Positions 19,182-22,523 of a stretch of 64,000 nucleotides of DNA are shown one piece after another. The translations under genes and the position numbers were made by a program. Position 1 is the first letter of the stretch; every line of letters starts with the position of its first letter. Source of the DNA: a virus; the IMG/VR virus record IMGVR_UViG_3300028392_000030, positions 32,001 through 96,000 of that record; one strand, given 5' to 3'. The notes under the pieces are model-generated. The model ran no database searches, had not been told where the DNA came from, and was given only the letters and a program-made list of their open reading frames with translations.

Positions 19182-19904
19182 ATGGCAAAATTAATAGTAT
19201 GCGGATGTAGTTTGAGTGCTGATAGCATTGACAGGCCAGGAACAGGCTATGGCCATCAAACAGCCAAGCGGTTGGGTTGGGACGTAGAGATACTGGCACG
19301 GCAAGGATGCAGTAACGGTGGTATCCGTATACAAATAGATGAAGCACTACGCCAACAGCCTGATTTTGTCATTGTGGCACCAACATTTTGTGATCGTATA
19401 GAGATTCCTGCTGCCACTGACTGTGGCTACGATAAAACAGCCGGTATTGATAATGTTAACTATGGCACAAATCCATATCGCATGATTTGTGAAAATATAA
19501 CTACGTTGGTTGGGAATTATAACAATCCATATCGCACAGGTGAACTAGATAAAAATACACAGGAGGCGATTCGACAATACATTAACCACATATACGATGT
19601 CAATTGGAAGCGACAGCAAGATGAATGGATCATGCGCGATGGCATTATGCAGTTGTTCTATTCTGGTATACCATTTTTGATTATCGCCGGCGAACTTTGG
19701 AATACCGGAAATATACGCCAAGCTATACCTAAAGTAGTAGACGATCGATACTTGACCCTTGACTACCAAGAAACACCTAATTATGCAATAACCAATTGGC
19801 CGTTTGAAAGCACAGACCCTGGATACCACGGTAGTCCGGCTGGTCAGGAATATTTGGCAGAAATCTATGCCGACAAGATACGCAATTGGCAATATGCCAG
19901 TTGA
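19182..19904 (+). CDS. SGNH/GDSL-like protein
   Basis: LIVCGCSLS, GCSNGGI, DPGYHG. Confidence 0.6.
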   Translation: MAKLIVCGCSLSADSIDRPGTGYGHQTAKRLGWDVEILARQGCSNGGIRIQIDEALRQQPDFVIVAPTFCDRIEIPAATDCGYDKTAGIDNVNYGTNPYRMICENITTLVGNYNNPYRTGELDKNTQEAIRQYINHIYDVNWKRQQDEWIMRDGIMQLFYSGIPFLIIAGELWNTGNIRQAIPKVVDDRYLTLDYQETPNYAITNWPFESTDPGYHGSPAGQEYLAEIYADKIRNWQYAS

Positions 19905-19929
19905 CAAATCATAAATAACCATGTATAAT
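19901..19929 (+). promoter_or_regulatory. Sigma70-type promoter (leaderless)
   Basis: TTGACA-N17-TATAAT, 6 nt, ATG at 19936. Confidence 0.8.
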
Positions 19930-20586: not shown

Positions 20587-20615
20587 TTGACCCAAAATAG
20601 CTATTCGGCTATAAT
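20587..20615 (+). promoter_or_regulatory. Sigma70-type promoter
   Basis: TTGACC-N17-TATAAT. Confidence 0.75.
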
Positions 20616-20642: not shown

Positions 20643-21248
20643 ATGATGCCTAGTGTATTTTTAGTAAGCGACACGCATTTCGGACATACCGGCGTCTGCC
20701 GCTTCACCCGTAATGACGGTGTTACAAAGTTAAGGCCGTGGGATAGTCCTGAAGAAATGGACGAAGCCATGGTCAAGGCCTGGAACGAACGTGTTAAGCC
20801 CACAGACAAGGTCTACCATTTGGGTGACGTTGTGATCAATCGTAAGGCCTTGGGTATTATGCATAGATTGAACGGTGATAAGGTGTTGATCCGTGGTAAT
20901 CATGACATCTTCAAAGATGCCGACTATCGTGAACATTTTCGTGAACTTCGTGCATACCATGTGATGAATGGTATGATCTTGAGTCATATTCCTGTTCACG
21001 CAGAAAGTCTTGGTCGTTTTGGTGTTAACATTCACGGACACTTGCATGCCAACCGTGTCAAGCGGGCTCGTGGTGTTGATGCTAGAACCGGAGAAGTTTT
21101 ATACAGTGATGAGAACGACGTTCGTTATCATTGTGTCTGTGTAGAGCAAACTGATTTTGCACCCATCTTGTTTGAAGACGTGATCAAGCGAATTGAAGCA
21201 GAAGGTGGTGCAGTAGGTTTTAGGAACGGAAATGGTCCTACGATGTAG
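20643..21248 (+). CDS. Calcineurin-like metallophosphoesterase
   Basis: SDTHFGH, LGDV, GNHD, SHIP, HGHLH. Confidence 0.9.
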   Translation: MMPSVFLVSDTHFGHTGVCRFTRNDGVTKLRPWDSPEEMDEAMVKAWNERVKPTDKVYHLGDVVINRKALGIMHRLNGDKVLIRGNHDIFKDADYREHFRELRAYHVMNGMILSHIPVHAESLGRFGVNIHGHLHANRVKRARGVDARTGEVLYSDENDVRYHCVCVEQTDFAPILFEDVIKRIEAEGGAVGFRNGNGPTM

Positions 21249-21327: not shown

Positions 21328-21375
21328 AAAATAGTTTGACAAGATATAGGAGTTAGTGTAAAATACAAATTCAAT

Positions 21376-21463: not shown

Positions 21464-21667
21464 ATGGACATTGATCAAGCGGCAGTATTTTTAGCAGGTA
21501 GTATTTTAACAGCACTGGGATTTATTATTATTGTAATAGCGGCAGTTGTTATTAATAATATCATTCACAAATATTGGAAAAGTTTTGGTTGGAATTTTTT
21601 TCCAGCTTATGTGCAAAAAGAAGAAAAAGAAGTGGTTTACGAAGAACCCAAGTTGGATAAGAAATAA
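21464..21667 (+). CDS. Small membrane protein
   Basis: Hydrophobic helix; AAGG SD. Confidence 0.65.
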   Translation: MDIDQAAVFLAGSILTALGFIIIVIAAVVINNIIHKYWKSFGWNFFPAYVQKEEKEVVYEEPKLDKK

Positions 21668-21669
21668 GT

Positions 21670-21746
21670 CGGAGTGTAGCACAGCCTGGTAGTGCGCCTG
21701 GTTTGGGACCAGGAGGTCCGAGGTTCGATCCCTCGTACTCCGACCA
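21670..21746 (+). tRNA. tRNA-Pro(TGG)
   Basis: CGGAGTG/TACTCCG; CCTGG-TTTGGGA-CCAGG; CCA. Confidence 0.95.
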
Positions 21747-21753
21747 AGAGTTT

Positions 21754-21828
21754 GGCTTCATAGTATAATGGTTAGTACGGTGGCTTGTCACGCCACTAAT
21801 AGGAGTTCGATTCTCCTTGAAGCCGCCA
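21754..21828 (+). tRNA. tRNA-Asp(GTC)
   Basis: GTGGC-TTGTCAC-GCCAC; CCA. Confidence 0.93.
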
Positions 21829-21830
21829 AG

Positions 21831-22234
21831 TTAGGGTGCCTGAACATAAATGCATAAGACAGTTCAGGTTAAGTGGTATCCCGTTATGGGGCCAGCCCAC
21901 CTAACGTGCCAACTGTCATTGGCTAGTCTGACCCAGACGATGAGAAGTGGTATGACAACCACGGGTGGTTCTGAAACGAAAAGTTTCACACAGAAGCCAT
22001 GATAGAACATGGATGTATGTGCGGTCCAACCTAACCGGCGCTAGCAATGCGAGAACGGTCCCTGTCGGGAAGCGGGTGGAAGGTGTAAGTGACGAACAGA
22101 CTAGTTAGGGCAACTTGACGAAATTTCTGATACACTATAATTACCGCCGGGGGACGCAGAGCATATATGAACACATTCGGTTGGCCCATAGCCAACAGAG
22201 ACATCAGAAACGTGAGTGTGTTCTTATATGTTTT
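21831..22234 (+). ncRNA. Large structured ncRNA, GOLLD-like
   Basis: Dense nested helices (GTTAGG/CCTAAC, CCTGAAC/GTTCAGG, GCCAA/TTGGC, GTGGT/ACCAC, CCATG/CATGG, GAACAC/GTGTTC, GTTGGC/GCCAAC) fill the gap between two tRNAs; size and context fit GOLLD; family assignment is from recall, not a search. Confidence 0.65.
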
Positions 22235-22320
22235 GGAGATGTAGGAAAATTGGTAACCCCAGTGGACTGTAAATCCGCCGCCTTCAGGCACTGTTGGTTC
22301 GACTCCAGCCGTCTCCACCA
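22235..22320 (+). tRNA. tRNA-Tyr(GTA)
   Basis: GTGGA-CTGTAAA-TCCGC; long variable arm; CCA. Confidence 0.93.
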
Positions 22321-22325
22321 AACAT

Positions 22326-22401
22326 GCTCGGTTCGTCTATCGGCTAGGACACTGCCCTTTCACGGCAGGAAGGAGGGGTTCGATTCCCCCACCGAGTACC
22401 A
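22326..22401 (+). tRNA. tRNA-Glu(TTC)
   Basis: CTGCC-CTTTCAC-GGCAG; CCA. Confidence 0.93.
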
Positions 22402-22408
22402 GTCAGTC

Positions 22409-22492
22409 GCGATTGTGGAGAAATGGTATACTCAGCAGACTTAAAATCTGCCGTCAAAAGACATGCTGGTTCGAGTCCAGCCAGTCGCACCA
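22409..22492 (+). tRNA. tRNA-Leu(TAA)
   Basis: GCAGA-CTTAAAA-TCTGC; variable arm; CCA. Confidence 0.93.
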
Positions 22493-22523
22493 ATACAATG
22501 GTACTTTAACGTAAATACATAAT

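Follow-up and report, generated by a model that had tools for sequence, protein, structure and literature searches.

What occupies the 406 nt that separate the tRNA-Asp and tRNA-Tyr genes in the tRNA array of a giant phage? The stretch analysed here, referred to as the window, comprises 64,000 nt of a 197-kb IMG/VR virus record with an estimated completeness of 57%, its source being an uncultured giant phage, and the gap spans 21829-22234 on the + strand. An earlier note on this DNA had read the gap as one ornate RNA of about 400 nt, either a compact variant of the GOLLD RNAs or a new class, set free by maturation of the neighbouring tRNAs.

The gap within a tRNA operon

The + strand of the window carries 14 tRNA genes and a permuted tmRNA, as predicted by ARAGORN and confirmed with Rfam. 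The gap lies where the earlier note had placed it, between tRNA-Asp(GTC), which has an encoded CCA (21754-21828, +; ARAGORN, and 67.8 bits with the Rfam tRNA model), and tRNA-Tyr(GTA) (22235-22320, +; ARAGORN and Rfam tRNA model). Its G+C content is about 50%, compared with about 31-40% in the protein-coding DNA flanking the tRNA cluster, and the short ORFs within it include none that is credible. On the + strand the gap folds better than shuffled sequences (z -2.9), whereas on the - strand it does not (z -1.5).

Upstream, a sigma-70-type promoter (21336-21364, +; TTGACA, a 17-nt spacer, and TAAAAT, with 11/12 consensus positions) precedes a unit composed of tRNA-Met, a 67-codon ORF, tRNA-Pro, tRNA-Asp, the gap, tRNA-Tyr, tRNA-Glu, and tRNA-Leu, and no terminator-like site was found on the + strand of the run from tRNA-Met to tRNA-Leu before 22492. 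Given this promoter and the lack of an internal + strand terminator-like site, the RNA of the gap is likely co-transcribed with the flanking tRNAs. Two further sigma-70-type promoters are located upstream of the tRNA region, at 19901-19929 (12/12) and 20587-20615 (11/12), both on the + strand, and such near-perfect promoters suggest that the region is transcribed by the host RNA polymerase.

A phage RNA family at the core of the gap

A 15-mer from 22057-22071 of the window, used as a search word, matched at least 119 viral contigs, and blastn with the gap as query gave about 100 true homologs among the matches listed, over query positions 75-141 and 197-349. Since these two homologous blocks adjoin in most relatives, the sequence between them represents an insertion in this phage's copy, while the first 70 and the last 60 bases of the gap are absent from most relatives. 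A covariance model built from family members (R1; 204 positions, 43 pairs) yielded 91 family matches in 100 sources, one per locus, and matched the window full-length (model positions 1-204) at 21901-22167 (+; 205.5 bits, E 1.5e-62), a match that is partly by construction, as the window copy was in the R1 seed alignment, and whose independent support is the blastn similarity to about 100 loci. This 267-nt segment, hereafter the core, is an expanded form of a phage tRNA-array RNA family with a median length of 204 nt, and ranks among its longest members. All family loci lie among tRNA genes and on the tRNA strand, the flanking tRNAs being of many identities.

The most conserved sequence of the family is an invariant 20-mer (22056-22075), identical in 52/52 sequences of the first alignment and varying only in a few divergent members found later. 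BLAST searches found the family neither in 50,697 GenBank phage records nor in the E. coli genomes searched. An exact scan for the 20-mer in one genome from each of 185,579 species matched four places, one of which is a real member, located on a 23-kb phage-like MAG contig (L121) with tRNAs and a permuted tmRNA alongside; the other three are isolated, one of them within a coding region, and among the genomes searched the 150 others of this MAG's order held no family member. By sequence comparison, the core is almost certainly a member of a phage-only RNA family that is uncatalogued in Rfam 15.

Regarding copy number, the record of the window holds a single member, as do four of five near-complete genomes (320-364 kb), the fifth, a 524-kb record, having two. 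The latter (G005, 524,565 bp, which holds L047) carries its copies at 119579-119794 (-) and 424193-424396 (+), which may reflect a genuine duplication or a chimeric assembly. Besides, contig L096 shows a second, weak R1 match (972-1226, -; 21.5 bits) 340 nt upstream of its true member. This weak match copies the H1 and H2 hairpins almost exactly in its first ~38 nt and has diverged in the remainder, so that it represents a duplicate that is partial or else an RNA that is related.

Among the relatives for which both flanks are present, L071 is the closest (92% identical); its unit starts right after tRNA-Tyr and stops right before tRNA-His, and in L111 the upstream tRNA-Ser ends at the unit start, with tRNA-Cys starting at most 2 nt from the unit end. 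The earlier proposal of release by tRNA maturation fits these tRNA-bounded copies. At many other loci the unit starts directly after an encoded CCA, and several loci have a -10-like box just upstream of the same 5' end and no upstream tRNA.

The cores that begin immediately after an encoded CCA do so where exonuclease trimming could not stop, and they could therefore be cis-acting processing elements or ribozymes that set the ends of neighbouring tRNAs, for example by cleaving their own 5' end after the upstream CCA; a compact, pseudoknotted fold with invariant junction bases is also ribozyme-like. We nevertheless give this explanation little credence, as no self-cleaving ribozyme, RNase P, or intron model matches, several copies without an upstream tRNA apparently start the transcript themselves, the flanking tRNAs are too varied in identity, and in this phage the core is preceded by another RNA module, module A, rather than by a tRNA.

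Nested helices of the core

Covariation was examined in two sequence-only alignments (A1 and A2) and in an R1-fitted one (A3), which leans towards the structure of the model. The covarying hairpins are already present in the sequence-only MAFFT alignment, and A1 and A2 show the same covariation as A3. In the R1 alignment, 97.5% of cells hold standard pairs, against 78.6% in shuffled controls and 39-53% when the 3' partners are slid, and compensatory change is found in 33 of the 43 nested pairs. Nine nested helices are preserved by compensatory change across the family, and the window copy forms all helices except for three terminal non-standard pairs, namely the innermost of H1, the outermost of H4, and the innermost of NC. 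The expectation of at least ten helices in the gap was borne out, more than ten being real.

On the + strand, the 5' domain of the core opens with the hairpins H1 (21908-21923, loop GUC at 21915-21917; 6/6 pairs compensatory), H2 (21926-21938, loop ACCC at 21931-21934; 3/4 pairs compensatory, with a loop that covaries with the hub strand described below), and H3 (21947-21962, loop GAC at 21954-21956; covariation in the stem). The lineage-specific insertion (21970-22020, +) adds 51 nt forming two hairpins (fold z -2.7), the first of which shows compensatory changes in L076, L075, and L034; insertions of variable content occupy this site of the core in 18 of 92 matches. It is followed on the same strand by H4 (22021-22038, loop AACC at 22028-22031), compensatory at 5/5 pairs across the family, and by H5 (22039-22051), a 3-bp hairpin with a 7-nt loop containing GCAA, in which C-G changes to U-A in 30 sequences.

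The 3' arm (22058-22155, +) is built of stacked helices whose internal loops are invariant, and it includes a kink-turn-like bend and a distal stem capped by GCAA. At its base, helix X (22058-22063 with 22150-22155, +) and helix Y (22072-22075 with 22144-22147, +) both have their two strands changed together in L141 and L144, and in L133 and L149, moreover, G-C replaces U-R where helix X ends on its inner side. Further out, the C-stem (22082-22087 with 22131-22136, +) is compensatory at 6/6 pairs. The 3' strand of this arm includes TTTCTGAT, for which the earlier note had suggested a long-range pairing with ATCAGAAA; instead, TTTCTGAT pairs locally with covariation, ATCAGAAA is located in the interior of the 3' hairpin module, a region that is not conserved, and the pairing across modules is not conserved.

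More divergent members, retrieved by a scan for a variant of the hub, were used to correct the long-range pairs, and several candidate structures were discarded. RNAalifold had paired the hub with ACCGCC over a long range, but compensatory changes in L141 and L144 pair ACCGCC with a second G-rich motif. The 3' Gs of the invariant 20-mer vary freely in divergent members (L141, L144, L133, and L149), which refutes a local hairpin within it. A 5' palindrome considered as a dimerisation site was also rejected, its outer bases pairing within H1 and the word itself varying.

Loop contacts and the kink-turn-like bend

Tertiary contacts were found by a mutual-information scan and tabulation. The H1 loop GUC (21915-21917) and the H3 loop GAC (21954-21956) are complementary in 98% of cells, compared with 0-48% in slid controls, with A-U replacing G-C at one pair in 13 sequences, and in the L066 type both loops differ and yet form a complementary pair. 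The hub strand GGGUGGU (21963-21969, +) can form pseudoknots with the H2 loop ACCC (21931-21934) and the H4 loop AACC (22028-22031), and in 12 distinct sequences A/U/A at family positions 31, 66, and 79 gives way jointly to G/C/G. The hub could pair in either of two registers, which fit equally well. Covariation in these sequences shows a 5' domain that is predicted to be knotted, with three hairpins of which loops 1 and 3 kiss, and a hub that pairs with two ACC-type loops.

Because covariation is blind to whether pairs form within or between molecules, some or all of the hub-loop and loop-loop pairings could be intermolecular, which would make the core a homo-oligomer, a ring or a cage. Such an RNA-only assembly would parallel ROOL, GOLLD, and manA RNA, likewise from phages, and the niche of the core is the one occupied by GOLLD and ROOL, in phages, near tRNA islands, and with no known protein partner (PMC12286853). 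Cages are possible for RNAs of less than 200 nt (bioRxiv 10.64898/2026.07.01.735769), and a conserved protein neighbour of the core was not found. However, all three contacts are sterically plausible in one molecule as an ordinary pseudoknot or kissing fold, and the core has no homology to any cage-forming RNA, so that we consider such assembly very unlikely.

The bend in the 3' arm resembles a kink-turn, a motif of folded RNAs that include the T-box and SAM-I leaders, in which a C-stem, a 3-nt bulge, and tandem sheared G-A pairs lead into a non-canonical stem. In its sequence pattern, the core likewise combines a C-stem, a 3-nt bulge (22088-22090 in the window), and tandem G-A pairs (G22091/A22092 facing A22130/G22129) at the bend of a long arm, which would let the GNRA-capped tip of the arm fold back on the core. 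The consensus sequence pattern of the kink-turn is present in ~66 of 82 distinct sequences; unlike in kink-turn RNAs, to which there is no homology, the G-A pairs are replaced by ordinary Watson-Crick pairs in about 10 family members. The phage's own record, which is incomplete, yielded no kink-turn protein of the L7Ae type.

The topology of the three consecutive hairpins of the core with kissing outer loops is that of the D, anticodon, and T arms of tRNA.

Modules A and B

On sequence grounds, the gap is composed of three separate folded RNA modules, module A, the core, and module B, and this division displaces the single RNA of about 400 nt, as the three parts occur independently in other phages. 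Module A is a ~72-nt RNA folded as a three-way junction (21829-21900, +), in which an 8-bp hairpin with a loop of 16 nt (21838-21869) is followed by another hairpin (21874-21894). Its only homologs are in L081 (275-345, -) and L270, both directly upstream of the core, and a gapped scan for the module A hairpin gave only chance matches. Among the three copies most positions of the 8-bp stem differ and still pair, while the 3' half is identical. Neither ARAGORN nor the Rfam tRNA model recognises a cloverleaf in module A, which is thus not a tRNA; what is tRNA-like in it is its 72-nt size, to which L081 adds a terminal CCA.

The multiway junction that the earlier note had closed by GTTAGG/CCTAAC fared less clearly. 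The two words are present at 21830-21835 and 21900-21905, and an equivalent pairing could form in L270 and, more weakly, in L081, but this closure competes with a GGGU/GCCC closure, would use the first bases of the core, and belongs to a module whose fold is no better than that of shuffled sequences (z -0.9 to -1.3, not significant).

Module B is a long hairpin (22158-22234, +; fold z -4.65), which corresponds to the long 3' stem described earlier as reaching tRNA-Tyr and is both real and conserved in other phages. Its base uses the last bases of the invariant 3' tail of the core, and it ends one base before tRNA-Tyr. About 30 of 98 loci have a homologous hairpin of ~85 nt 3' of the core, and L083 exchanges one of its U-A pairs for A-U; since this hairpin is directly followed by a tRNA in several loci, module B is not a terminator; we guess that it may be a processing stem.

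At other loci, different conserved modules take the places of A and B. A ~65-nt conserved hairpin module (fold z -3.8) occurs in two phages, L098 (11755-11819, +) and L270 (~108-180, -), where it immediately precedes the core or module A. In many loci, for example L110, L113, L006, and L020, a conserved non-coding module of more than 100 nt that starts with UAUAGUCAAGCAUCGAUA lies 3' of the core or of module B, and is probably another RNA of these tRNA arrays.

Comparison with catalogued RNAs

At gathering scores, the search of the whole window with Rfam 15 gave no match in the gap, and at E<10 over 21600-22500 no non-tRNA family touched the gap on the + strand. The only match at E<10 touching it was that of a nematode snoRNA model on the opposite strand, which with 18 bits against a gathering score of 70 is at chance level. 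RNase P, group I and II introns, tmRNA, riboswitches, and known ribozymes were set aside for the gap, there being no Rfam match within the sensitivity of those models. Two of these candidates had local resemblances: an Azoarcus-like group I intron core with a candidate P7 (21923-21930 with 22097-22104), the first strand of which pairs locally in H2 and the second of which lies in a variable tip, again with no Rfam match; and an RNase P CR-I-like word at helix X, with the wrong connectivity and no model match.

The check proposed in the earlier note, a search with the GOLLD (RF02032) and ROOL (RF03087) models, produced no match to either, at gathering score over the whole window or at E<10 over 21600-22500. 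ROOL RNAs are about 580 nt in size, and the core family (204-284 nt) differs from both ROOL and GOLLD in its helices and conserved sequences and in the lack of a covariance-model match. GOLLD and ROOL are RNAs of phages and prophages, often near tRNA islands, with elaborate pseudoknotted folds, and both their function and their protein partner are unknown (PMC12286853). The core shares with them that it is phage-encoded and lies inside or near a tRNA array, whereas many GOLLD members exceed 800 nt and have a universally conserved 3' region (PMC12286853), compared with 267 nt for the core and 406 nt for the whole gap.

That the gap encodes a single ~400-nt RNA that is a compact GOLLD variant is barely credible in the light of these data. 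Its location in a phage tRNA island is that of GOLLD (PMC12286853), and no tRNA separates the three modules here, so that they could be excised in one piece; however, size and architecture differ, no GOLLD or ROOL match appears even at E<10, the modules are found separately in other phages, and no long-range pairing across them is conserved. The other option that had been offered, a new class characterised by good covariation and no GOLLD match, describes what was found for the 267-nt core.

A closer parallel in layout is provided by the species 1 and 2 stable RNAs of phage T4 (rnaC and rnaD), which, like the core, lie head to tail with tRNA genes, the order in the T4 record being tRNA-Arg, rnaD, rnaC, the same kind of arrangement as at the family loci. 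They are discrete stable RNAs whose function is still unknown (PMC9697503). With filters off, R1 reached at best 4.8 bits on T4 69800-72200, showing no homology of the family to rnaC or rnaD. The ends of both T4 RNAs are also tRNA-like, with T-arm and acceptor sequences, whereas the core has no such end. Reading T4 70908-71171 (L154) by eye, we noted that rnaC ends in a T-arm-like hairpin with an acceptor-like strand and rnaD in ACCA, which suggests from sequence that both are tRNA-derived, unlike the core family.

Neighbouring genes and a possible role

Neighbour-gene clustering found no protein gene that is constant next to the core family, and a search with the protein encoded downstream found no related loci. 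Within 4 kb, the genes seen most often are those for a homolog of the omega subunit of RNA polymerase (in 20 loci) and a metallophosphoesterase (in 19), along with those for HNH endonucleases and a DnaJ protein. The small omega (Rpb6-family) homolog lies ~2 kb downstream of the RNA, at 4045-4335 in L076 and in 19 other loci. In the window, the metallophosphoesterase is a calcineurin-like protein of 201 aa (20643-21245, +), and in 19 loci a homolog is encoded at most 4 kb from the RNA. This fold is shared by enzymes able to heal 2',3'-cyclic phosphate ends of RNA, so that a role in tRNA repair is conceivable for it.

Restricted to phages, present as a single copy, and encoded amid the tRNAs, the family could serve as a decoy in counter-defence, its fold mimicking or sequestering the target of a host RNA- or tRNA-directed defence enzyme and so shielding the phage tRNAs or translation. 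The unpaired bases are very strongly conserved, suggesting a protein partner that is itself conserved, and the metallophosphoesterase gene is close by in 19 loci, including the window. Still, we judge a decoy distinctly unlikely, given that the core resembles no known defence target or inhibitor, that the association with the neighbouring gene, at 19 of about 75 loci, is a weak one, and that nothing ties the phosphoesterase to the RNA.

The explanation that we favour, with a probability of roughly 50% for the whole, is that the released core is a stable trans-acting RNA with a conserved partner, which may belong to the translation or tRNA machinery; what it says on family membership and structure is nearly certain. 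That the product acts in trans, and not as a cis element, is indicated by the varied neighbouring tRNAs, the copies that start their own transcript, and the absence of a constant protein neighbour, while the invariant unpaired bases of the core argue for a conserved partner. According to this explanation, the unit would be transcribed from the promoter at 21336-21364 along with the tRNAs, and RNase P acting at the 5' end of tRNA-Tyr, together with 3'-end processing of tRNA-Asp, would cut the RNA out. Modules A and B would be accessory structured spacers occupying the positions that tRNAs hold in other phages. As nothing known cuts between the three modules in this phage, the RNA set free may span all 406 nt.

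Once released, the core might act in trans as a stable RNA, its invariant unpaired surfaces binding a highly conserved partner, which we would guess to be the translation or tRNA machinery that the phage reprograms with its own tRNAs and tmRNA. This choice of partner, to which we give clearly less than even odds, is favoured on context alone, namely the tmRNA and 14 tRNAs of the window and the permuted tmRNA that likewise stands beside the family member in L121. Duplexes predicted for the core with the tmRNA of the phage did not surpass those of shuffled sequences, and neither complementarity nor a known binding motif pointing to a partner was identified in the core.

It is also possible, although we think it unlikely, that the core constitutes a functional RNA class that is new and has its own activity, for example as a self-assembling RNA-only particle or as a tRNA-elbow-like mimic or ribozyme. 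In the first case, GOLLD and ROOL would be joined by a third and much smaller kind of nanostructure from phage tRNA islands; in the second, the mimic or ribozyme would act on the ribosome or on tRNA ends.

Significance

The translation parts encoded by giant phages include extensive sets of tRNAs and a tmRNA, and the family described here, which is strongly conserved, single-copy, and intricately folded, had gone unnoticed until now within the tRNA operons of well over a hundred phages. With a well-constrained fold of ~200 nt, it is far more tractable than GOLLD or ROOL for structure determination and pull-downs. Together with GOLLD, ROOL, and the species 1 and 2 RNAs of T4, it points to phage tRNA islands as a general home of functional non-tRNA RNAs.
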